Shown: positions 2,121-62,006, counted from the first letter of the stretch. The stretch is DNA of 64,000 nt from an uncultured Pseudomonadales bacterium (GCA_964630755.1 CAZVYS010000001.1:25893-89892), one strand, 5' to 3'. Translations and numbers: made by a program. The notes: a model not told the origin generated them from the sequence alone.

Positions 2121-3257
2121 CTATAATTTAATAGTTTCAGCTTGCAAGGTAATTTTGTTAATAACTTTGTCTATTGGATAATCTGATTCAATTTGTTTAA
2201 CTTTTTCTAAGTTAGCTCTCGTGGCTGGTTTTTTACTCACTAAACTACAACAATCTTTGTAGGGTTTAATTGCTTGTTTTTCTAGGTCAATATTCTTAAC
2301 TAAGTTAATAATATCTTTTTTATCCATACCGATAAGGGGCCTAAAGATAGGGATGCCAACAGATTCATCAACAGCAACAATGTTTTCCATGGTTTGGGAA
2401 GCCACTTGACCTAAAGAATCACCTAAAACTAAAGCCTGGTAGCCGTGTTTCTTGGCTAGGTTCTCCCCGACTTTAACCATCAGACGTCTAAAAACAACTA
2501 GTTCTTGTTTTTGGAGCTTAGAATCAATTTCTAAAGCTGTTATTTGAAATGGAGTGTATGAAGATAAAAATAGCTTTTGAGATTGAGTGTAACTTGACAG
2601 TTTATCAACAATGGATTTTATTTTTGAGTTTAAAACTTTTTTTTGATCGGCAAAGACATGAAAGTGTAAATAATCGACCTTGGCTCCCCTTTTGGACATT
2701 AAATAACTTGAGGCAATTGAGTCAAAACCACCAGATAACAAAGATAAGACTTTACCAGAGGTGCCAACTGGCAGGCCACCGGATCCAGAAATCTTTTTTG
2801 TGTACAAGTGAGTGAAATTTTTGTTAATTATGATAAAAATTTGAGTTTGAGGATTTTTTAGATTAACTTTTGATTTGGTTGCTTTTCTGACTGCCTCTCC
2901 TACCTTAATGGCTACATCTTGACTATTAAATGAAATGGTTTTATCAGCTCGTGTAACGCGAAGAGCAAAGCTTTTTGGTTTTGAAGCTAATTTTATAGCT
3001 TGCCTTGAAATTTCTTTTAAATTGGTTTTAGTTTCTTTTATATGAGCAAACCAGGCAATGCCAAATACATTTTGAAGTTTATTTATGCTTTGATTAATTA
3101 AACTAGATTTCACCTCTATAAATAACTGTTTTCTTCCCAGAGTGACAATAACTGGATTAATAGTCTGTTTAATGTTTCTGATAAGCTGATGTTCGAAGTC
3201 TTTTCGGTTGTGGCCTTTGAGACCAATTTCTGCGTACCGAACGAGAATTTTTGCCAT
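2121..3257 (-). CDS. thiI: tRNA 4-thiouridine(8) synthase ThiI
   Basis: N-terminal THUMP-like region plus PP-loop SGGFDS. Length and order are typical of ThiI. Confidence 0.8.
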   Translation of the reverse strand: MAKILVRYAEIGLKGHNRKDFEHQLIRNIKQTINPVIVTLGRKQLFIEVKSSLINQSINKLQNVFGIAWFAHIKETKTNLKEISRQAIKLASKPKSFALRVTRADKTISFNSQDVAIKVGEAVRKATKSKVNLKNPQTQIFIIINKNFTHLYTKKISGSGGLPVGTSGKVLSLLSGGFDSIASSYLMSKRGAKVDYLHFHVFADQKKVLNSKIKSIVDKLSSYTQSQKLFLSSYTPFQITALEIDSKLQKQELVVFRRLMVKVGENLAKKHGYQALVLGDSLGQVASQTMENIVAVDESVGIPIFRPLIGMDKKDIINLVKNIDLEKQAIKPYKDCCSLVSKKPATRANLEKVKQIESDYPIDKVINKITLQAETIKL

Positions 3258-3373: not shown

Positions 3374-4558
3374 TTATTTAAGTTGTTTTTTGGTGTAGAT
3401 CCAGATTCCGCCCAGGCCTGAAAGCAAAGCTATAAGGCTAACAAAGGCTCCGACTCCAGGAATAAGTTTTAGAAGATAAAGAGCTAGTAAGCCTAAAGAG
3501 AAAGTGACTTGAGGGCTGACTTTTTTCCAGTTTAAATACTTATCAAGAGTGAGGCCAATGGCCATGGCAGTAAATAATTTAGCTAAGCTAAGCTCAATAA
3601 TAAACACCATTGCTAAAATGGCGGCTAAAGGAAAACCTACTCCAGTAATGGCTAATAGCATTAACGCAGGAAAGGTTAATATGACTAAAACTAGTCCCCA
3701 ACCAAGACTTGATAGAAATTTTGATTTAATGTTACCGGCAATAGCTAGGGTTGGTTTTTTTAGTAACCAAAGTAAGACTAAGCCAACAATCAAACTAGAG
3801 AAAAAAGATATTACCTTAAATGCATACTTAGCATTAGACAAATTCTTGTTAAGATTCATTTTGAATTGCTTGTTATTCCATTCGTTTGACTTTGGAGTAT
3901 GGCGTTTTGTTTCACCTAAAATAACAGCCTGATCATCGATCTGAAGATCTTTTTCGGTAGCGTAGGTTAGGTTGCCATTAATAACTGTTTTGGGGCCAAA
4001 ACTTACATCTTCACCACCAATATAGGCTTCGCCGCCAACTGGAGCGTTGTGTTTAAAGTTACCGGCACCAACCATAAGGTTTCTTAAGACTGGAGCTTGA
4101 TTATCAAGCATTCCTGTGCCTGCCAGTAGAGAACCATTTATCTTAGATTGATCATCAACTTTAATAGAACCTGCGCCTACAAGCATGCCGTCACCAATAG
4201 TAGAATCTGTAACAGTTAAATCACCTGCACCAACGACTAAATCATCACCAATTTGACCGTTAATATAGACTTTTCCAGAACCAACGATTAGATCGCCGGT
4301 AATGCTGCCAGAAAAATTAACAACGCCGGCACCAACATAAACATCGCCATCAATAGTGCCAAAGATGTCGACTGTGTCGGCGGCAAGAAATAGATCGTCG
4401 GTGATAACCTCAGATTTTTCGATAACAATGCTGCCTTCGCCTTCTTTTTTAAGAATAACTTTTGCCTGAGTAGTAGAGGCAAAAATAAATAGACTGATAA
4501 ATAGAATAAGAATAATTTTTAGTTTTTTCATATAGATAAAATATACTCTATTTTCCAA
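3374..4558 (-). CDS. membrane protein with an N-terminal signal peptide, Gly-rich beta-helical (bactofilin-like) repeats and a C-terminal four-helix transmembrane domain
   Basis: Repeats of G-x-I/V-x-G-D-L-x-V-G-A-G (GDLIVGSGKVYINGQIGDDLVVGAGDLTV...) followed by about four hydrophobic helices. The likelier start is MKKLKIILILF. Confidence 0.35.
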   Translation of the reverse strand: MENRVYFIYMKKLKIILILFISLFIFASTTQAKVILKKEGEGSIVIEKSEVITDDLFLAADTVDIFGTIDGDVYVGAGVVNFSGSITGDLIVGSGKVYINGQIGDDLVVGAGDLTVTDSTIGDGMLVGAGSIKVDDQSKINGSLLAGTGMLDNQAPVLRNLMVGAGNFKHNAPVGGEAYIGGEDVSFGPKTVINGNLTYATEKDLQIDDQAVILGETKRHTPKSNEWNNKQFKMNLNKNLSNAKYAFKVISFFSSLIVGLVLLWLLKKPTLAIAGNIKSKFLSSLGWGLVLVILTFPALMLLAITGVGFPLAAILAMVFIIELSLAKLFTAMAIGLTLDKYLNWKKVSPQVTFSLGLLALYLLKLIPGVGAFVSLIALLSGLGGIWIYTKKQLK

Positions 4559-4593: not shown

Positions 4594-6378
4594 ATGAAGG
4601 AAATACGAAATATTCTATTGCAGATTCCTAAATTTAAGCGTCGATTCGCAATGTTTGTGGTGGCAGTGATTATTGCTCAAGGAGTGGCAATTCAATTAAT
4701 TCCCTTGGTTGACAGAGAAATAACTAGTTTAGTGGAAAAAGCCATAAAAGGTGAGGTGATTCCAGTTTCAAGTTTTTACCCCTATGCATTAATCGTGGCA
4801 CTAGCTTACCTAGTATTTCGCATATTTAATCGAATTTCTTACACTTTGACTAGTATTTTAAGAGAAGAGGTTTGGAATCATACTTTTAGAACTGGATTTG
4901 CCAAGGTTTTGTTTCATGACCTTGAATATATTACAGCTGATCGATCAGGAGGGCTTTTAAGTAAACTTGAACGAGCTTCGACTAGTTTTGCTAATTTATT
5001 TACCGAATCGGCGGCGGCTCTTTTTCGGAATCTTTCAAAGGCATTTGCTTCATTAATTATTATTTTTAGTATTTCATGGGAAATAGGCTTGGGTGTCTTG
5101 GGAACTATGATTACTTATTATATTGTTTACTGGTTTAGGTTTAAGCTTGATATTCCATATGCTGAAAAAAGAGACAAATTTGCTGATGATGAGTTTAGTC
5201 GAGTATGGGAGGTTATTCCTCAATCAAAAATCAGTAAGATTTTTACAAATGAAAAGAAAGAAATTAAAAATATTGCTTGGATTGGAGATGAGATTATTAA
5301 GATTATTAAAAAACGTGAACTTTTGTGGTCATATGCCAATATAGCTGAGTATCCGTTAGTAACTATTCCAACTATTGTTATTAAACTTTGGGCGGCTTGG
5401 ATGGCTATTAACGGCAGATTTGGCATTCCGACTTTTGTGCTTCTTTATTCGATGATTTCAATAGTTCAAGAGCCAATGTGGGTAATTAACTGGTTTATGT
5501 GGGAGATGCAAGATACTTTTAATAGAGCAAAAAAGTATCTGAAGATTCTTCGCTCAAAAGAAAAAGTTCTAGATCCAGTCAAGCCTGAACGAATAGCTAA
5601 TCCTTTTGGAGATATAAAATTTGAACAGGTCAGCTTTAGCTATTCTCAGGGCCAAAAAAATGTTTTTAAGAAGATAAATCTTAACTTTTCAGGTAAACAA
5701 TTTACAGCCTTAGTGGGAAAATCTGGAGCAGGAAAATCGACGATTACCAACATGATCTGTCGTTTCTTTGACGTTTCCGAAGGCAAGATAACTATTAGCG
5801 GACAGGATATTCGTAAGTTGGCTAAAAAAGATTTACGATCACATATTGGTTTTGTGACCCAAGAGTCCTTTGTTTTCTCTGGGACTGTGGCAGAAAACCT
5901 TCGATATGCAAAAGTTGATGCAACTGATGATGAAATTATGACTGCTATTAAGAAAGCTTATGCGTGGGAATTTATTAAGAACTTTAAAAAAGGCATTCAG
6001 ACCGAAATTGGAGAACGGGGAATAAAACTGTCAGGAGGACAACGTCAACGCTTGTCCATTGCTCGAACTATACTAAAAAATCCATCGATACTTATCTTAG
6101 ATGAAGCGACCAACTCTCTTGATTCTGAGTCTGAGATGGCTGTGCAGCAAGCTCTTGAAAATTTTATGAAAGATCGAACAGTGATTGTGGTGGCGCATCG
6201 TTTGTCTACTGTGCAAAATGCCGATAAGATTTATTTAATTGATGATGGTCAAGTTCAAGAAGAAGGCAACCATCAAGAACTTCTGAAGAAAAACGGAGTT
6301 TATAAAATGTTGTATGAAATTCAATCTGGTGGTTTTGAGAAAAATCGCAAGATTATGCAAGAGTATGAACTTTTATGA
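4594..6378 (+). CDS. ABC transporter, fused permease/ATP-binding protein (type I exporter, MsbA-like)
   Basis: N-terminal transmembrane domain; Walker A GKSGAGKST; signature LSGGQRQR; Walker B ILILDEAT; H-loop. Confidence 0.8.
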   Translation: MKEIRNILLQIPKFKRRFAMFVVAVIIAQGVAIQLIPLVDREITSLVEKAIKGEVIPVSSFYPYALIVALAYLVFRIFNRISYTLTSILREEVWNHTFRTGFAKVLFHDLEYITADRSGGLLSKLERASTSFANLFTESAAALFRNLSKAFASLIIIFSISWEIGLGVLGTMITYYIVYWFRFKLDIPYAEKRDKFADDEFSRVWEVIPQSKISKIFTNEKKEIKNIAWIGDEIIKIIKKRELLWSYANIAEYPLVTIPTIVIKLWAAWMAINGRFGIPTFVLLYSMISIVQEPMWVINWFMWEMQDTFNRAKKYLKILRSKEKVLDPVKPERIANPFGDIKFEQVSFSYSQGQKNVFKKINLNFSGKQFTALVGKSGAGKSTITNMICRFFDVSEGKITISGQDIRKLAKKDLRSHIGFVTQESFVFSGTVAENLRYAKVDATDDEIMTAIKKAYAWEFIKNFKKGIQTEIGERGIKLSGGQRQRLSIARTILKNPSILILDEATNSLDSESEMAVQQALENFMKDRTVIVVAHRLSTVQNADKIYLIDDGQVQEEGNHQELLKKNGVYKMLYEIQSGGFEKNRKIMQEYELL

Positions 6379-7985: not shown

Positions 7986-8003
7986 CAAGGCCGGGCCTTG
8001 TCA
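7983..8003. terminator. GC-rich perfect hairpin (TGACAAGGCC-G-GGCCTTGTCA) between convergent genes, probably a bidirectional terminator
   Basis: A 10-bp inverted repeat followed by ATTTAATT. Its AAGG/CCTT arms echo the dispersed palindromic element. Confidence 0.35.
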
Positions 8004-10084: not shown

Positions 10085-10903
10085 CTAATCTGCAAGAGGA
10101 ATTGAGTCTTTAAGGCTGAATTTTCCAACTTTAAGACGCTTGATGTTTAAAGCAAGGGCGGGAATATTTAGTTTTTGGCCAATGTTATTAGCTAACGAAC
10201 GCATATAAGTACCAGATGAGCAAGAAATCTTAAGAGTGGCAGTGGAAAAAGTATTAATGGAGTTTTGATTAAAGAATGCTTGCCAAGTCTTTTTAATTTG
10301 GGATTGTCGAAAGTCTCCTTTTACTAGTTTAATTGATTGAAGTATGTGCTTTTTGAGACTAATAGCAGAAATTCTGTTTATTGAAATTAGATTAATAGAG
10401 TTAATGGTGATTTTTCGAGTGGGAATTTTGATTTTATTTAGCTGATTAGTCCGAGCGTAATAGAAAAGCGGCCTACCTTTAACAGTTTTAGATGAATAGG
10501 GTGGATAAACTTGAACTTGAGGACCAATATAGCTTGGTAAAAGACCTTCAAGGTTGGACCTTGAAGGTTGGTGTCTCGAGAGTCTATTTGTTATAGGCTT
10601 AGAAAGCCTACCTTCAAGGTTGGACCTTGAAGGGTGAGAAGGTAGACCAAGAAAGTCGTAAGTGTCGGTGGAGACACCAAAGACAATTGTTAGCTGATAT
10701 GTTTTATCAAGATTAAGATATTGAGCTTTAAGCTTTTCAGTGGGATCAAGAATAATTAACAACACCCCCTCAGCTAAAGGGTCTAGCCGACCAGCATAGG
10801 TAAGTTTTTGATTTATTAGCTCAGGTTTTAGCTGTTGAAGCCTGTTAATGGCTTGAAGAGGCGTAAAACCTACAGGTTTATTTAAGTTGAAAATCTTTGC
10901 CAT
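10085..10903 (-). CDS. truB: tRNA pseudouridine(55) synthase TruB, with an approximately 90-nt in-frame insertion
   Basis: Catalytic motif AGRLDPLAEGVLLI (GxLDxxAxGVL). A PUA-like C-terminus is present. It carries a tandem palindromic-element insertion encoding PSRSNLEG twice. Confidence 0.8.
   Translation of the reverse strand: MAKIFNLNKPVGFTPLQAINRLQQLKPELINQKLTYAGRLDPLAEGVLLIILDPTEKLKAQYLNLDKTYQLTIVFGVSTDTYDFLGLPSHPSRSNLEGRLSKPITNRLSRHQPSRSNLEGLLPSYIGPQVQVYPPYSSKTVKGRPLFYYARTNQLNKIKIPTRKITINSINLISINRISAISLKKHILQSIKLVKGDFRQSQIKKTWQAFFNQNSINTFSTATLKISCSSGTYMRSLANNIGQKLNIPALALNIKRLKVGKFSLKDSIPLAD
10544..10634. repeat. tandem pair of palindromic elements (ACCTTCAAGGTTGGACCTTGAAGG, twice) with a palindromic spacer, inside truB
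   Basis: Copies at 10544-10568 and 10610-10634. The spacer contains CTCGAGAG and AGGCTTAGAAAGCCT palindromes. In-frame with no stop. Confidence 0.7.
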
Positions 10904-19171: not shown

Positions 19172-20856
19172 TAGGTCATGAGAACTGTTTTGACTTTTAG
19201 TTGGAGGGATTTTTGGTTGTTCCAGACGTTTTTATCGAGAGTGTAGACAAGATCAATTGGTTGATTTTCTGATAAGTCTTTGGCTAGATAGCCGTGGTTA
19301 AAAGCAATGGCATTTACCTTCAAGGAGTCTCCCTGTAGGCTTAATTTAAGATGTTTTTGGTCTTGGCCGACGGTGCGAAAACTAGCTAAAGAGACTTTTT
19401 TAGAAATAAAGACTGGCCGAGGATTGCCAAAACCAAAGGGGCGTAGTTTTTCAAGGTCATCATATAATTCCCAGTTAATGTCAGAAAGATTAAGCTCTAG
19501 GTCAACCTCTAGGATTGGAGTGAGTTGTCTTTCTGTTAGTTGCTTTTCAGCTAAAGCAGTTAATTTTTTCTTCACTTTTTCAAGATTTTGATTTGCAACC
19601 GTAAAGCCAGCAGCCATTGGGTGACCGCCGTGTTCAAGTAAGTCTTTTTCAATAGATCTAATATTTTTAATGGCATTAAAGCCTTTAATCGACCTAATTG
19701 AAGCTTTGGAAGTGTTTTTGCCAAGAGCGACTACAATGCTAGGTCGATGATATTTTTCAGCCAAGCGACTGGCAACTAGACCAACTAAACCTTCATGAAA
19801 AGTTTTGTCTGCTACGAAAATGAGCTTTGGCATTTGATTTTGATTTAGCTTGGAGACTTTGTTGGTAATGTTTTTGGCATGAAAGTACATATCTAGAGTT
19901 TGGGTTTGACGAGTCTGATTGGTAAGGTTCACGGTTTGGGCTAGTTTTTTAGCCTTGTTATTATCGGTGGTGCAAAGTAACCTCAATGAATCTAGGGCAT
20001 GAGATAAACGCCCCATGGCGTTAAGCCGAGGACCAATAACAAAACTGGCCTGATAGGCTTCAAGGTCTTGGAGTTTAAAACCAGCTTCATCAGCTAGAGC
20101 AATTAGACCGGGTCTTTTAGAACTTTGAAGTTTTTTTAAACCAAATTTAGCAATAGAGCGATTTATACCCACTAAAGGCATCATGTCAGCAATAGAACCA
20201 AGGGCAACTAAACTTAAGTGTTGAGGGATATTTTTAAGAAGCTTTGAAATCTGCCAAGCAACGCCAACGCCAGCTAGCTTAGTAGAGTGAACGATGGAGT
20301 GAGCTTTGGGAAGTTTATTACCCTTTGGTTGATGGTGGTCAGAGATAATAACTTCAATGCCTAGTCTATTGGCATAATCCACTCCTTTAAAGGCCGAGAT
20401 ACCGTTGTCAACGGTGATGATAAGATCGGGCTTTTTCTTTTTTAAAGAAATAATCTCGTCAATGCCCTGAGGAGATAAACCGCGGATTTTATCATCTCGG
20501 GGTGGAATATATGGTAAAGCATTAGCTTTTAATTGATAAAGTGTTTCCCACAAAACAGCGGTGGCGGTTACTCCATCAGCGTCAAAATCTCCGTAAATAA
20601 AGATCAGTTCTTTATTTTTAATAGCTTTTTTAATTCTTGTAACTGCTTTTTTGAGTTGAGTTGAATTAATTTCTAAGTCTTTAGGGGAAAAGTTGATTGG
20701 ATTTTCTGGGCTTAAAAATTGGTTTTGGAGTTTTTTGGATATAAGACCTCTGTTAATTAATAAAGCCTGGATGATTTCCTGGCGGCGTTTATTGAGACTT
20801 TTAGTTTTTAGTTTAGATTTTATTTTTATCTTTTTATCCATAAGAGATATAATCAT
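19171..20856 (-). CDS. recJ: single-stranded-DNA-specific exonuclease RecJ
   Basis: DHH family motifs (GDFDADGVT, ...IISDHH) and a DHHA1-like C-terminal region. Carries an in-frame palindromic element near the C-terminus (LSLQGDSLKVNAI). Confidence 0.8.
   Translation of the reverse strand: MIISLMDKKIKIKSKLKTKSLNKRRQEIIQALLINRGLISKKLQNQFLSPENPINFSPKDLEINSTQLKKAVTRIKKAIKNKELIFIYGDFDADGVTATAVLWETLYQLKANALPYIPPRDDKIRGLSPQGIDEIISLKKKKPDLIITVDNGISAFKGVDYANRLGIEVIISDHHQPKGNKLPKAHSIVHSTKLAGVGVAWQISKLLKNIPQHLSLVALGSIADMMPLVGINRSIAKFGLKKLQSSKRPGLIALADEAGFKLQDLEAYQASFVIGPRLNAMGRLSHALDSLRLLCTTDNNKAKKLAQTVNLTNQTRQTQTLDMYFHAKNITNKVSKLNQNQMPKLIFVADKTFHEGLVGLVASRLAEKYHRPSIVVALGKNTSKASIRSIKGFNAIKNIRSIEKDLLEHGGHPMAAGFTVANQNLEKVKKKLTALAEKQLTERQLTPILEVDLELNLSDINWELYDDLEKLRPFGFGNPRPVFISKKVSLASFRTVGQDQKHLKLSLQGDSLKVNAIAFNHGYLAKDLSENQPIDLVYTLDKNVWNNQKSLQLKVKTVLMT
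19316..19341. repeat. palindromic element copy (ACCTTCAAGGAGTCTCCCTGTAGGCT), in-frame in recJ
   Basis: GGAGTCTCC core; encodes LQGDSLKV on the minus strand. Confidence 0.7.
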
Positions 20857-20886: not shown

Positions 20887-21615
20887 ATGAATTTACGTCT
20901 GAAAAATTATAAGAAAATTAGAACTCCGTTTGTATTTTTAGATGAAACTGGATCAATAAACTCAAAAGCAGAAAGATTTTTTGGAATTGGAATGATTAAG
21001 TGCATGCAGCCATTTTTTTTAGACTCAAGCATTAGATACATTAGGCAAAAATATAAGCTTTATGATGAAATAAAGTGGAATACTATTTCTAAAGCAAAAA
21101 TGGCTGTTTTAAAAGAAATAATTAAAACTATTTTTGAAACTCCAGGAATTTATTTTTCTTCCTTAATTATTAATAAAGATGATGTTAATTTTGAAATTGA
21201 GTTTAATAATAATCCATATTTAGCATATCAAAAATTTTCAGAAGAGTTGCTAAAAAATAGTATTAGTCAAACAGAAATATTAACGGTTTTAGCTGATTAT
21301 ATTGATACGCCTAAATCAGTTAGGTATGAAGTAATGGTAAAACATCAAGTTAATCAAGCACTAGATCGACTAGCAATCGGGGGCATACATAGAGTAGATT
21401 CAAAAGGGGTAAATTTAATTCAAATAACTGATTTATTTTTAGGAGCCGTAGTGTATAACTATAAAATTGACAATAAATTAGTAACTGGAGACAAGAATAA
21501 AATAAAAATACTACAATATATTCAGTCAGGGTTAAAGATTAAATCTTTAGGTCAATCTATAAACGTAAAAGGGTTTAAAGTATTTGAATACAATAAAAAA
21601 GGGCCATCATCCTAA
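20887..21615 (+). CDS. hypothetical protein, DUF3800-like
   Basis: The N-terminus TPFVFLDETGSINS resembles the DUF3800 (Y)IDESG start. No other motif recognised. Confidence 0.3.
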   Translation: MNLRLKNYKKIRTPFVFLDETGSINSKAERFFGIGMIKCMQPFFLDSSIRYIRQKYKLYDEIKWNTISKAKMAVLKEIIKTIFETPGIYFSSLIINKDDVNFEIEFNNNPYLAYQKFSEELLKNSISQTEILTVLADYIDTPKSVRYEVMVKHQVNQALDRLAIGGIHRVDSKGVNLIQITDLFLGAVVYNYKIDNKLVTGDKNKIKILQYIQSGLKIKSLGQSINVKGFKVFEYNKKGPSS

Positions 21616-23129: not shown

Positions 23130-24018
23130 CTAGTTATTTCTTTTCTTAGACTTAAACTCTTCCCATAAGACCAGTAAAGGGGCGGCGGTGAAGGTTGAGG
23201 AATAAGTGCCGGAGATAGTACCGATTAGTAAGGCAAAAATAAACCATTTGGTGGTCTCGCCACCTAGTAAGTAAAGCGAGAGTAACATAAAGATAATAGT
23301 TAAGGAATTATTGACTGATCGACCTAGAGTTTCGGTGACGGCCTTGTTAACTAGGTCTGTATAAGGCATCTTAGTATGAAGAGATTGAGATTCTCTGATC
23401 CGATCATAAACTACGATGGTGTCATGAACTGAAAAAGAAAGAATAGTTAAAACAGCGGTTACAAATAAGGCGTCAACTTCAATCCCTTGAGTGGCGCCTA
23501 GAAAACTAAAAACTCCGATTAAGATAAAAGTATCATGAAGCATGGCTAGGATAGCACAAACGCCGTATTTTTTATCTTTGAACCTGAATGTCACATATAA
23601 AAGAATAAAGCCGGCTGCCAAACTAACGCCAATCAAGGTTTTTCTAATTAATTCTTTACCTAGAGTAGGCCCTAAGGTTGAAAAGCTAATCTCCTGAGTA
23701 TCTCCTAAAGAAGTAGTTAGTTCTTGTTGCAAGGTTTTATTTTTGGTTTGATCGAATTCTTGGGCTTTAATAATAAAGGTGTTTTCTCCTGTGCTTTGAA
23801 CGCTATGTAGATCAATTATTTTTTTAGATATGTCTTCAACTTGATCGACTGTGATGTCTTCAACTTGAGTAGGCTTGATGTTTAATTCAAGTAAAGTGCC
23901 ACCAGTAAAGTCTACGGCTGGTTTTAATCCATAATTAACTAGATAAAAGGCGCTCGGAATTAAAAAAAACAAGGAGATTATAAAATAAACTAGTTTGTAT
24001 TTCATGAAGTTAATCATA
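23130..24018 (-). CDS. secF: protein translocase subunit SecF
   Basis: SecF membrane topology and motifs. The likelier start is the ATG at 24018 (MINFMKYKLVY) with AGGA 7 nt upstream. The track ORF (to 24104) reads through the palindromic elements. Confidence 0.8.
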
Positions 24019-24021
24019 TGA

Positions 24022-25434
24022 TTATCCTGTAGGGAGACTCCTTCCAGTTTTGCTGTCCCGATTTGGCCGTTGGCCAGATCTCCTGTCAAGGAGTCTCCCT
24101 CCAACTCTCATTAGAGATCTAGTTACTATGACTCCTGTAAACAAACTAATAATCACTCCAATAAACAAAGTTAAGGCAAAGCCTTTGACCATTCCAGAAG
24201 TATTTAGAAAGTTAAAGTTAAAAGGATTAATTAAGACTAAGCTTGTAATGATTGTGGCAAGATTGGCATCTTTGATTGAGTCCCAAGCTCGACCAAAACC
24301 CAATTCTAAAGAAACAGCAAAAGACCGACCAGCTCTTAACTCTTCTTTGAGTCTTTCAAAAATTAAGATATTTGAGTCAACGGCCATGCCGACTGACAAA
24401 ATAAAACCGGCAATGCCTGGTAAAGTTAAGGTAACTGGAATTAATTTATAAATAGTTAAAGTAATCAAACCATAAATTAATAAAGCAATATTAGCTAACA
24501 TTCCGTTTAGTCCGTATAGCAAAACCATAAAAAGCATAACTAAGCCTAAACCAATGGCTCCAGCAGTGATTGATTTAGTGATTGAGGCTTCTCCCAAGGT
24601 AGCGGAAATGTTTTTTTGTTCAACAACCTTAATAGGAACTGGTAAAGCCCCAGCGTTAAGCATGATAGATAATTCTGAAGCGGTTTCGGGGGTAAAGTTG
24701 CCAGAAATGACGGCTCGACCATCAAGAATTGGCTCGTTAACCATGGGTGAAGTAACTAAACGGTTATCTAGGAAAATAGCGACTGGTCGGTTTAAATTAC
24801 GAGAGGTAATGTCGGCAAATTGCTTTTTGCCTTCTTCTGAAAACTCTAAAGCAACTACTGGTTGATTGGCGGCTGATTGACCCTGAGAAAATTGGACTGA
24901 GGCTTTTTTTAGATCTTTGCCAGTCAAGCCGGTAGAAGTAAAGTTGAAAATACGGGTAAAAGCTGATGGGCTAGCGTAATTAACTTCAGCTGAATCAGTA
25001 GCAGTATCTTCCCTGAAATCTAACTGGGCAGTTTGACCGATTAAGTTAATAGCCGTAGATATATCCTGAATTCCAGGAAGCTCAACAATAATCCGGTATG
25101 AATCATCATGAATAGAAGTTTGTATTGATGGCTCTGACACCCCGTAGAGATCAACCCGGCGAGAGATAATTTCTTTTGAAGAGTTAATAGCATCAGGGAT
25201 ATCTTCTTTTTGAAGTGAGGACATATCTGCCTCTAAAACTAGATGAGTACCACCTTGAAGATCAAGTCCTTTTTTTAATTCAAGAGTTCGAGAGTTAATG
25301 GTAATTTTGGGAATATTAAAGTTTATTTCTCGATTTTTAATCTTAAAATTGACTGGAATAGCAGGAAGGTTGAGATAAAGGCAGACTAAAACTAGAAGTA
25401 TAATAAACCACAATCGGCGGACAGAATTTTTCAT
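24022..25434 (-). CDS. secD: protein translocase subunit SecD (C-terminal approximately 25 aa derived from palindromic elements)
   Basis: SecD periplasmic domain plus six C-terminal transmembrane helices. The C-terminal tail ...RRSGQRPNRDSKTGRSLPTG is encoded by the repeat block. Confidence 0.8.
   Translation of the reverse strand: MKNSVRRLWFIILLVLVCLYLNLPAIPVNFKIKNREINFNIPKITINSRTLELKKGLDLQGGTHLVLEADMSSLQKEDIPDAINSSKEIISRRVDLYGVSEPSIQTSIHDDSYRIIVELPGIQDISTAINLIGQTAQLDFREDTATDSAEVNYASPSAFTRIFNFTSTGLTGKDLKKASVQFSQGQSAANQPVVALEFSEEGKKQFADITSRNLNRPVAIFLDNRLVTSPMVNEPILDGRAVISGNFTPETASELSIMLNAGALPVPIKVVEQKNISATLGEASITKSITAGAIGLGLVMLFMVLLYGLNGMLANIALLIYGLITLTIYKLIPVTLTLPGIAGFILSVGMAVDSNILIFERLKEELRAGRSFAVSLELGFGRAWDSIKDANLATIITSLVLINPFNFNFLNTSGMVKGFALTLFIGVIISLFTGVIVTRSLMRVGGRLLDRRSGQRPNRDSKTGRSLPTG
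24026..24104. repeat. composite of two palindromic element copies (CCTGTAGGGAGACTCCTTCCAG and CCTGTCAAGGAGTCTCCCTCCAA) around a GGCCGTTGGCC palindrome, at the secD/secF junction
   Basis: GGAGACTCC / GGAGTCTCC cores. The whole block is in-frame with secD and forms its last approximately 25 codons. Confidence 0.7.
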
Positions 25435-25619: not shown

Positions 25620-25635
25620 ATGTAAACGCTATTCA

Positions 25636-25700
25636 TTAAGGTCCGGCCTTTAAGCTAAAGCTTCAAGAACAGACCTTGCTCCTTTCAGGAGACCATCTCC
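25636..25700. repeat. cluster of short palindromes (TTAAGGTCCGGCCTTTAA, CTCCTTTCAGGAG, GGAGACCATCTCC), possibly degenerate element copies or a terminator
   Basis: Inverted repeats seen directly. The arms and core resemble the dispersed element. Overlaps the last codons of the 25685-26269 gene. Confidence 0.3.
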
Positions 25701-35740: not shown

Positions 35741-36688
35741 CTATTTAGTATACCAAGACTTTAGTTGAGTGACTACTATTTGAGGATAGTTATGACTATT
35801 GATATTAAACCATTTAATGTAGGGTTTTTTATGAAACCAAGTTATTTGGCGACGAAGATATTGTTTTTCAGCTGTTGTCCAGGATTTAATAACTTTATCT
35901 ATGTTAATATTTTTCTTAAAATAAGGCTGCCATTGTTTATATCCCATGGCTGACATAGACGGTAAATTCCAAGAATAGCCAGCTTTGATTAGTGATTCAA
36001 CTTCTGCTTTGGAATTAGCGCTAATTCTATCAAGAACTCTTTTCTCAACTCTATTATCTAAGTTTTTTTTATTAGCAGTTAAACCAACCCAAAATTGATC
36101 AGATTCTGCAAGATTCAGTCTTTTTGTTTTCTTAACCTTCAAGGTCGGACCCTTAAGGTTAATTTCGATAGCCCGAATTAGTCGACGTGGATTATGTTGA
36201 TCAGAATGATTCATTTTTTGATATTTATCAAAATCTAGTTTTTTTAGTTTTTTTTGAAGACTGAGAACATTTAATTTACTTAACTGCTGGCGTAAAACTT
36301 GGTTAGCAGGAATGGCAATGGTGTTTAGTGGTTTTGTTAAAGCCTGAAGATACAAACCAGTACCGCCAACAAGAATAGGCAATTCTCTGGCAGTCCAAAT
36401 CTTTTTAATTCTAGGGATAGCAAAGTTTATAAAATGAGCGACAGAAAAATCCTGATTTGGTTTAACTAAATCGTAACCCCAGACTTTAATTTTTTTGATT
36501 AAATAATGTCCATCTTTATATTGTTTAGCTTTTTGAGGTAAATCTTTGCCTGTGCCAATATCCATTCCTTTATAAACTTGACGAGAATCAGCTGAGATAA
36601 TCTGACCTGAAAAGATCTTACTTAATTTTAAAGCCAAATTGGTTTTGCCAGTGGCAGTTGAACCACAAATAATTAGAAGTTTTTTCAT
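35741..36688 (-). CDS. miaA: tRNA dimethylallyltransferase MiaA (with an in-frame palindromic element)
   Basis: P-loop LLIICGSTATGKT, DSRQVYKGMDIGT. The element encodes INLKGPTLKVKK. Confidence 0.8.
   Translation of the reverse strand: MKKLLIICGSTATGKTNLALKLSKIFSGQIISADSRQVYKGMDIGTGKDLPQKAKQYKDGHYLIKKIKVWGYDLVKPNQDFSVAHFINFAIPRIKKIWTARELPILVGGTGLYLQALTKPLNTIAIPANQVLRQQLSKLNVLSLQKKLKKLDFDKYQKMNHSDQHNPRRLIRAIEINLKGPTLKVKKTKRLNLAESDQFWVGLTANKKNLDNRVEKRVLDRISANSKAEVESLIKAGYSWNLPSMSAMGYKQWQPYFKKNINIDKVIKSWTTAEKQYLRRQITWFHKKPYIKWFNINSHNYPQIVVTQLKSWYTK
36133..36159. repeat. palindromic element copy (AACCTTCAAGGTCGGACCCTTAAGGTT), in-frame in miaA
   Basis: CCTTCAAGG / CCTTAAGG arms with a GGTCGGACC core. 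Confidence 0.65.
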
Positions 36689-61598: not shown

Positions 61599-62006
61599 TT
61601 AACGTCTTTTTGAAAATTTAACTTTAAAGCCAAATTTTTGACCGGCTCGACGAAAAGCCTCTTTAGCTATATCTTTTTGGACTCCTGCTAGTTCAAAAAT
61701 GACTCGACCGGGTTTAACCACACAAACATAGCCTTCGACTTCGCCTTTGCCCCCTCCCATTCGGACACCGGCTCCTTTTTTGGTATAAGTTTTGTCTGGG
61801 AAAACCCTGATCCAGAGCTTACCAGTTCTTTTGGTGTAATGGGTAATGGCTTTTCTGGCAGCTTCGATTTGACGAGCTGATAACCAACCACGGCCAACGG
61901 CCTTAAGGCCAAAATCTCCAAAAGAAACTTTTGAACCAGCGGTGGCTATACCCCTCATAGTGCCTCTAAAATGCTTTCTATATTTTTGACGTTTTGGTTG
62001 CAACAT
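61599..62006 (-). CDS. rplP: 50S ribosomal protein L16
   Basis: [15 protein letters not shown] start. Confidence 0.9.

Follow-up and report, generated by a model that had tools for sequence, protein, structure and literature searches.

The block at the junction of secD and secF in the window, by which we mean the whole 64,000-nt stretch of DNA analysed, is probably one copy of a small, non-autonomous and selfish repeat that resembles the Rickettsia palindromic elements (RPEs) and has settled in a tolerant spot. We propose that the element is a 70-nt palindrome folded around a three-way junction, with a 13-bp outer stem, two inner hairpins and a 6-nt tail (AWTGRA), and that it belongs to a family dispersed in Beckwithbacteria-like Patescibacteria, the group in which the window genome itself falls. 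Its copies would persist where they do no harm, in the surface loops and at the termini of proteins, each sitting in a stop-free frame and being translated together with its host gene. A literature search with most subscription journals outside its scope returned no report of such elements in Patescibacteria, and the folded repeat family appears to be previously unreported.

The palindromic block noticed earlier at the end of secD is confirmed by its sequence, its inverted repeat and its fold. On the minus strand, the 70-nt fold (24031-24100) is closed by a perfect 13-bp stem and followed by a 6-nt tail, ACAGGA, and then by the secD stop codon (Table 1). Read along that strand, the 5' part runs ...ATGAGAGTTGG AGGGAGACTCCTT GACAGGA GATCTGGCCAACGGCCAAATC GGGA and the 3' part CAGCAAAACTG G AAGGAGTCTCCCT ACAGGA TAA TCAT ATG.... 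An inverted-repeat scan returned the arms AGGGAGACTCCTT (24100-24088) and AAGGAGTCTCCCT (24043-24031) as perfect complements separated by a 44-nt spacer, with GGCCAACGGCC lying between them (24075-24065, minus strand). What the earlier note had described as two copies flanking a palindrome is therefore one element, the supposed copies being its two arms, each of which is a near-palindromic ARGG-N5-CCYT unit. As RNA the block folds at -38.9 kcal/mol (z = -4.6), a stability matched by 0/200 shuffles, and GGAGACTCC is present 4 times in the window, where 0.08 occurrences would be expected. The GC content of the element is 55%, that of the surrounding window and genome about 36%. A scan of the region with Rfam gave no family over the block at E values up to 10, and ARAGORN reported only tRNA-Gln and tRNA-Pro, both elsewhere in the window, and no tRNA/tmRNA-like gene at the block. 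A private sequencing frameshift, which the earlier note had named as a way in which its reading could fail, or an assembly error appears unlikely here because an ENA scaffold (L031), deposited separately although its sample origin relative to the window was not distinguished, matches the window at 99.98% identity over 4667 nt that include the block.

Table 1 Features of the secD-secF junction, with positions counted from the first letter of the window
Feature	Position	Strand	Remarks
secD, 470 aa	24022..25434	-	ORF runs through block
secF, 295 aa	23130..24017	-	ATG 24017 conserved in relatives as MINFMKYK
Outer stem, 5' arm AGGGAGACTCCTT	24088..24100	-	encodes G-R-L-L of the SecD tail
Junction J1/2, GACAGGA	24081..24087	-	family consensus RACAGGA; invariant in 17/17 copies (some columns by construction, see text)
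Inner hairpin P2, GAU-C-UGGCC-AAC-GGCCA-A-AUC	24060..24080	-	the GGCCGTTGGCC palindrome of the earlier note
Junction J2/3, GGGA	24056..24059	-	invariant across copies (some columns by construction, see text)
Inner hairpin P3, CAGC-AAA-ACUG	24045..24055	-	window copy: 3 bp and one C.A
J3/1 (G) and outer stem, 3' arm AAGGAGTCTCCCT	24031..24044	-	
3' tail ACAGGA and TAA	24022..24030	-	family consensus AWTGRA; secD stop and SD-like AGGA for secF

The block forms the C-terminal tail of SecD, as had been suggested: the secD ORF stays open through it, and the SecD of relatives that lack the element is about 20 residues shorter at this end. The ORF closes with ...GGRLLDRRSGQRPNRDSKTGRSLPTG, also written ...RRSGQRPNRDSKTGRSLPTG, and the tail comprises its last 26 residues, after ...LMRV, the final 24 of which (RLL...PTG) derive from the element and its own tail; predicted tail peptides include GRLLDRRSGQRPNR and DSKTGRSLPTG. 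The block also carries the secD stop codon, since TAA (24024-24022) directly follows the 6-nt tail. A frame-A stop stands at this point in 7/17 copies of the family (AWTGRA-TAA or -TAG), and SecD therefore ends there in the window. The secF start, previously placed at 24018 and 3 nt from the stop, is the ATG at 24017-24015, with 4 nt (TCAT) in between, and the product of the gene matches Pfam SecD_SecF_C (E = 4.8e-52). The proposal of a Shine-Dalgarno (SD) sequence inside the block holds in that the ACAGGA tail is positioned where an SD of secF would be expected, but the usable AGGA (24028-24025) lies outside the stem, in the unpaired tail just 3' of it and 7 nt upstream of the secF ATG. The strong AAGGAG within the 3' arm is paired and at least 20 nt from that ATG. 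Extending SecF N-terminally from a TTG at 24104 through the element (frame B) was rejected, as this frame relation is not conserved in L001.

Comparison of the SecD C-terminus with its orthologues, which the earlier note had put forward as a check, shows that the nearest relatives (80-89% identity) lack the tail and stop about 20 residues earlier, e.g., at ...TRTLMRVLLRKKL*. L003, the closest relative read as DNA (89%), has no element, and its secD stop and secF start overlap as ATGA. A homologous tail is present in the SecD of L001 and L002 (73-74% identity). At the DNA level, L001 and L002 share the site, the flanks, the arms and the junctions, while P2 and P3 are wholly different and fully compensated (TGGCC-GAA-GGCCA vs CGAGA-GAA-TCTCG and CAGT-GAA-GCTG vs CGCC-GAA-GGCG). 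Because these inner hairpins differ and yet stay compensated, the conserved feature is the nucleic-acid fold and not the peptide; the difference itself could stem from conversion between copies or from repeated site-specific insertion. The element occupies the secD-secF junction in 5 distinct SecD sequences (window, L001, L002, L010 and L013), and the junction in close relatives is found in three states, holding nothing (L003, L028), the element, or a different palindromic family (L026, L027). That other family, AAGGTTCCGAA...TTCGGAACCT, makes up the SecD C-terminal tail at L026 2835-2870 and L027 2803-2855 (peptides SSEP and GSEP), and its motif is repeated many times in L012 and occurs twice in the host protein of L024.

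In the proposed scheme, the window copy would sit in a short cytoplasmic tail between the last transmembrane helix of SecD and the secF start, where it would have replaced an ancestral 'LLRKKL-stop / ATGA' junction, would now encode the last 24 SecD residues and supply their stop, and would leave an AGGA 7 nt ahead of the start codon of secF. The SecD tail is basic and follows directly on the last SecD helix. Because this end of SecD is cytoplasmic in the topology of SecDF, a hydrophilic extension should be tolerated there. The tail is presumably translated, and the insertion may be selectively near-neutral for SecDF.

Seventeen distinct copies of the element, all of the same length, were collected from Patescibacteria genomes and metagenomes, and they align without gaps over 90 nt centred on the fold. 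An arms-only pattern scan (one genome per species) located the element at secD in another Beckwithbacteria genome; MAG070, the MAG of L001, carries one copy in secD and a second, in the opposite orientation, inside mreB. A junction-pattern scan of metagenome contigs gave 17 further loci. Because part of the junction sequence was specified in the metagenome pattern, some 'invariant' columns are so by construction, and the 3 copies recovered with the arms-only pattern have the same junctions as the rest, J1/2 included in all 3. One arms-only match, from Ruminococcus flavefaciens (L005) and with an unrelated interior, was taken as chance.

The alignment strongly favours a shared fold. In a model with an outer stem of 13 bp (pairs 7-19 with 64-76), a P2 of 3+5 bp and a P3 of 4 bp, 98.6% of 425 pair cells are paired and 13/25 pairs carry compensatory double changes, with 6/13 pairs covarying in the outer stem, 5 of the 8 pairs compensated in P2 and 2 of the 4 in P3. 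P2 is 100% paired across the 17 copies, and its C.A mismatch is conserved. The covariation score of 0.439 compares with 0.153 in shuffles (0/500 reach 0.439), pairing in slid controls does not exceed 44% of cells, and RNAalifold independently recovers the same structure. G.U pairs account for 2 of the 425 cells. The post-stem tail is likewise conserved in most copies. A covariance model built on this structure detects exactly one full copy in the window (93 bits, E = 1.8e-19) and, at other loci, one diverged copy (56 bits) and two weaker, differently built but related palindromes (22-26 bits). When the three translated frames were used as a profile against a set of 5.8 billion proteins, 3 weak matches were returned, a 25-aa match being too short for significance; a scan of viral contigs gave no match to the element.

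Every copy with a callable host gene falls within a long ORF that shows homology on both sides; the copy in L019 is apparently intergenic and that in L025 ambiguous. The hosts are MreB, UppS, a class A penicillin-binding protein (PBP), the NiFe hydrogenase large subunit, a MerR-type protein and SecD, together with two homologous CTP-transferase-like proteins that hold the element at the same site. In MreB, UppS, PBP and NiFe hydrogenase, host motifs are recognisable on both sides of the insert and the reading frame is kept; secD is the only one of the host genes that the window contains. The element lies in sense orientation to the host gene at about 6 sites and antisense at 4-5. Frames B and C are open in 17/17 copies, two frames are open in 11/17, and E and F are open in none, and host genes use open frames only. 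The translations in use read GRLLNRRP..SRD..GRSLPIG in the SecD tails, GDSLTGDPA.GRVGTAKLEGVSL, and antisense ETPSSFAVPTRHSAGSPVKESP. The earlier picture of an intergenic hairpin that had been absorbed into the coding sequence thus gives way to a dispersed family whose copies stand in frame within coding sequences, in either orientation.

Comparison with solved structures helps to delimit the insert. Against a solved UppS (PDB 7jli), it measures about 26-27 aa, corresponding to the fold plus the 6-nt tail AWTGRA, and in MreB it falls between residues 7 apart in a solved structure (predicted insert peptide ETPSSFAVPTR). This MreB loop holds different palindromic inserts in different lineages. 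A clean empty site was sought in MreB, but in the nearest relatives, L029 and L030, the loop that holds the element in L007 is occupied by a different palindrome, GGATCCGGCTTCAAAGCTAAAGCTTTGAAAACGGATCC (peptide VQEGSGFKAKA), of which L007 mreB retains an apparent right arm. Several further host loci show features of their own. The penicillin-binding-protein gene of L021 contains two copies, a diverged one (3837-3915, minus strand, 56 bits) in the N-terminal cytoplasmic tail and a canonical one (2290-2365, minus strand) in the transpeptidase domain. In L019, the full copy is immediately preceded by an incomplete one, GAGGACTATCCCCAACAGGAGACCTG, at about 4470-4505 (minus strand), which corresponds to the 5' part of the element. 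Residues 663-724 of the large MerR-type host protein in L020 give a weak match, below the curated cut-off, to a Pfam intein splicing domain.

The window contains other palindromes as well, and ARGG-N5-CCYT units number 14 in it against 4.5 expected. At 25622-25690 (minus strand), 1.5 kb from the secD element and between a 194-aa gene and a MazE-like gene, there is a 64-nt intergenic insertion relative to L003 and L001; it contains a palindrome (25632-25677, AAGGTCTGTTCTTGA...AAGGCCGGACCTTAATGAATAG) that is shorter than the secD element and has the same kind of ends and tail (model E = 0.046). The truB gene (10085-10903, minus strand) has an in-frame palindromic insert at 10545-10633, with two identical CCTTCAAGGTTGGACCTTGAAGG units about 38 nt apart that give a repeated PSRSNLEG peptide within the pseudouridine synthase. 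Solo 13-nt arm units occur at 260-272 (AGGGAGACTCCCT) and 19322-19334 (AGGGAGACTCCTT, on the minus strand), in frame in a methyltransferase gene and recJ, and both read LQGDSLKV; these may be scars, targets or chance occurrences, and it is very unlikely that chance would give an exact match to a 13-mer. Palindromes of the ARGG-N5-CCYT type are further found at 36132-36162, 7987-7999 and 61892-61902 (TTAACCTTCAAGGTCGGACCCTTAAGGTTAA, AAGGCCGGGCCTT and a second exact GGCCAACGGCC). A DUF3800 gene (20887-21615, plus strand, 242 aa) between recJ and the CCA-adding enzyme gene is missing at this position in L001.

Since the SecD junction and the MreB loop hold different palindromes, and given the other palindromes and the ARGG-N5-CCYT enrichment in the window, the simplest reading would be repeated insertion of selfish palindromes that survive only at sites the protein tolerates. 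The scarcity of G.U pairs, the indifference to orientation and the covarying arms fit a pairing constraint that acts on both strands of the DNA and not on a single RNA. Sequences bound by a transposase at the ends of an element are expected to be conserved, not to covary. We therefore hypothesise that movement of the element, in the past or still today, proceeds through single-stranded DNA that folds and is recognised in this form by an enzyme. Several points weigh against the overall scheme. The sites compared gave no instance of transposition, and none of them was a clean empty site from which the ends or a target-site duplication could be defined; no transposase or other enzyme was associated with the element in the window or the 31 loci. 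The invariance of the junction bases and of the C.A mismatch suggests that something recognises the element specifically, part of this invariance having come from the search pattern. That the same secD position is kept in at least three lineages could reflect host function rather than tolerance. On a wider and more tentative view, to which we give slightly less than even chances, Patescibacteria harbour a hitherto undescribed superfamily of translated palindromic elements assembled from ARGG-N5-CCYT units. In the present family, selection would maintain the fold and the junction bases on account of a structure-specific copying machinery, making it a second, independent case of Rickettsia-type coding palindromes, with a nucleic-acid fold that is defined and testable. 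Such a machinery would act on single-stranded DNA or RNA and copy the element into coding sequences, and copies might perhaps be converted against each other.

The position of the window copy also invites a reading as a host cis-regulatory RNA that would stabilise the mRNA, direct its processing or modulate translational coupling, and would be kept for SecDF stoichiometry. Such a role would account for the very stable fold, for its presence at the same junction in the 5 SecD sequences and for the stop codon and SD-like AGGA beside the secF ATG. We nevertheless regard it as unlikely, as the same element lies within the coding sequences of mreB, uppS, PBP and hydrogenase, often antisense, the nearest relatives lack it and have a plain ATGA overlap where their DNA was read, and the covariation is almost purely Watson-Crick. 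Nor do the predicted accessibilities of the -15..-5 region and the AUG change appreciably, being 0.41 and 0.36 with the element and 0.29 and 0.39 in L003 without it. The candidate ribosome-binding site of secF is thus predicted not to be sequestered, and this modelling lends no support to the earlier idea of a hairpin gating secF translation or to a regulatory role of the block. Coupling by reinitiation is plausible, because a ribosome stopping at the TAA would have melted the stem and would sit 4 nt from the secF ATG. An intrinsic terminator was ruled out: the stem is followed directly by ACAGGAUAAUCAU, with no U-tract on the sense strand, and a terminator scan found nothing on the minus strand at the element.

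A catalytic or protein-binding RNA motif carried on a mobile sequence, such as a hammerhead-like self-cleaving ribozyme or a multi-GGA protein site, is very unlikely in our view. The three-way junction has invariant unpaired bases, there are four spaced RGGA motifs, and the junction lengths of 7/4/1 on the sense strand resemble the 7/3/1 of a type I hammerhead; the core, however, reads RACAGGA / GGGA / G and not CUGANGA / GAA / H, Rfam offers no match, insertion is neutral with respect to the direction of transcription, and G.U pairs are almost absent. It is also unlikely that the element is the cognate single-stranded DNA hairpin on which, in a REP/REPIN-like system, a domesticated RAYT-type Y1 transposase acts. 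DNA hairpins are substrates of Y1/HUH enzymes, covariation restricted to Watson-Crick pairs suits a DNA substrate, and a Y1_Tnp gene does follow secF directly in L002, L026 and L028. Against this, the Y1 gene is flanked by hairpins of its own, ATCAC-stem-GTGATAGAGGTA, unrelated in sequence to the element, and no Y1 gene is found in the 64-kb window or within the 7.4-kb stretch around secD in MAG070; the window copy is the only one with a GTAG tag, and the copies lie within genes instead of between them. With different flanking hairpins, no gene in the window and no established link to the element, the Y1 transposase was set aside as a candidate mobiliser. The Y1 (IS200-like/RAYT-like) gene starts at 3811 in L026 and at 3753 in L028, and in L002 its REP-like flanking hairpins (4240-4266 and 4976-5002) have covarying stems, a third lying upstream of secD (1936-1965). 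A chance palindrome or an assembly artefact is extremely improbable, being refuted by the shuffled folds, by the 17 homologous copies elsewhere and by the identical block in the separately deposited scaffold.

The reading as a translated selfish palindrome bears on how such elements are viewed more generally. In-frame selfish palindromes have so far been treated as a peculiarity of Rickettsia, and the Patescibacteria family would be a structurally defined analogue. If this is true, repeats in essential proteins such as SecD, MreB, UppS and PBP have time and again been tolerated, and perhaps recruited, by genomes that are reduced and AT-rich. To our knowledge, the enzyme that mobilises RPEs has never been found; the constant length, invariant junctions and clean covariation of the present element would offer a concrete substrate for finding such an enzyme, and, with a fold this clean and a length that does not vary, the way in which coding palindromes move becomes open to direct testing. 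For annotation, the family would explain odd C-terminal tails and loop insertions in Patescibacteria proteins, which should accordingly not be taken for functional domains or assembly errors.

Placed among known systems, the element shares with the type I hammerhead three helices around a junction and single-stranded segments of similar length; it lacks the catalytic core sequence (junctions RACAGGA, GGGA and G, as opposed to CUGANGA, GAA and the cleavage-site H) and any Rfam match and occurs in both orientations, and it is therefore not a hammerhead. It is no integron attC site either, as such sites have terminal RYYYAAC / GTTRRRY cores and an integron integrase, whereas the CCTTRAC of the element is internal (J1/2), departs from RYYYAAC and reads GAC in 6/17 copies, and there are no gene cassettes at the element, which also has the features of neither an intrinsic terminator nor a tRNA/tmRNA-like gene. 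REP/REPIN elements with RAYT transposases are GC-rich hairpins in many copies (PMC3733652). The present element is similarly GC-rich and multi-copy, could serve as a single-stranded DNA substrate, and has a Y1 gene nearby in some related genomes. It differs in having no conserved GTAG or CGTC tag (GTAG in the window copy only, ATAG, TTAA and TTGA in others), in being an intragenic three-way junction instead of a simple extragenic hairpin of 20-40 nt, and in that the Y1 gene here has its own, different cognate hairpins; tag, location and structure all place it outside this group.

MITEs and small repeats such as ERIC, BOX, RUP/SPRITE and Correia can extend the 3' ends of genes (Delihas 2011, PMC3184786), and compensatory changes that keep the fold have been reported for some small repeats, e.g., bcr1 (PMC3184786). 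Like these, the element is non-autonomous, has terminal inverted repeats (13-bp arms, although these covary between copies) and can lengthen a protein C-terminus by in-frame fusion. No direct repeat was evident as a target-site duplication in the flanks of the 17 copies, for which there was no clean empty site, and no parent insertion sequence with the same ends was found in the window or the 31 loci, the ends of Y1_Tnp being different. The element is set apart by its mostly intragenic location and by arms whose covariation points to pairing, not to fixed transposase-binding sequences.

The closest parallel is with the RPEs, short palindromes of the small, AT-rich, reduced Rickettsia genomes (Ogata et al. 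2000, Science 290:347, as summarised in PMC10969869 and PMC3184786) that lie in frame in unrelated housekeeping genes, are translated, occupy permissive sites and have no known transposase (PMC10969869, PMC3184786). The element is not a member of this family as judged by phylum, length and three-way junction, and because its phylum differs, it is far shorter and it has a three-way junction, we place it outside the RPEs and the gene-extending repeats. Its hosts are Patescibacteria (Beckwithbacteria) and not Rickettsiales, and no sequence relation was recognised, the RPE-1 to RPE-10 consensuses not being part of the comparison. It consists of a 70-nt fold and a 6-nt tail, where RPEs measure about 105-150 nt, has a defined three-way junction with invariant junction bases, and is used in three reading frames and both orientations, with its own stop in one frame. 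What it has in common with RPEs is that it is a short palindrome inserted in frame into unrelated housekeeping genes of a small, AT-rich, reduced genome, at tolerated sites and with no transposase known.
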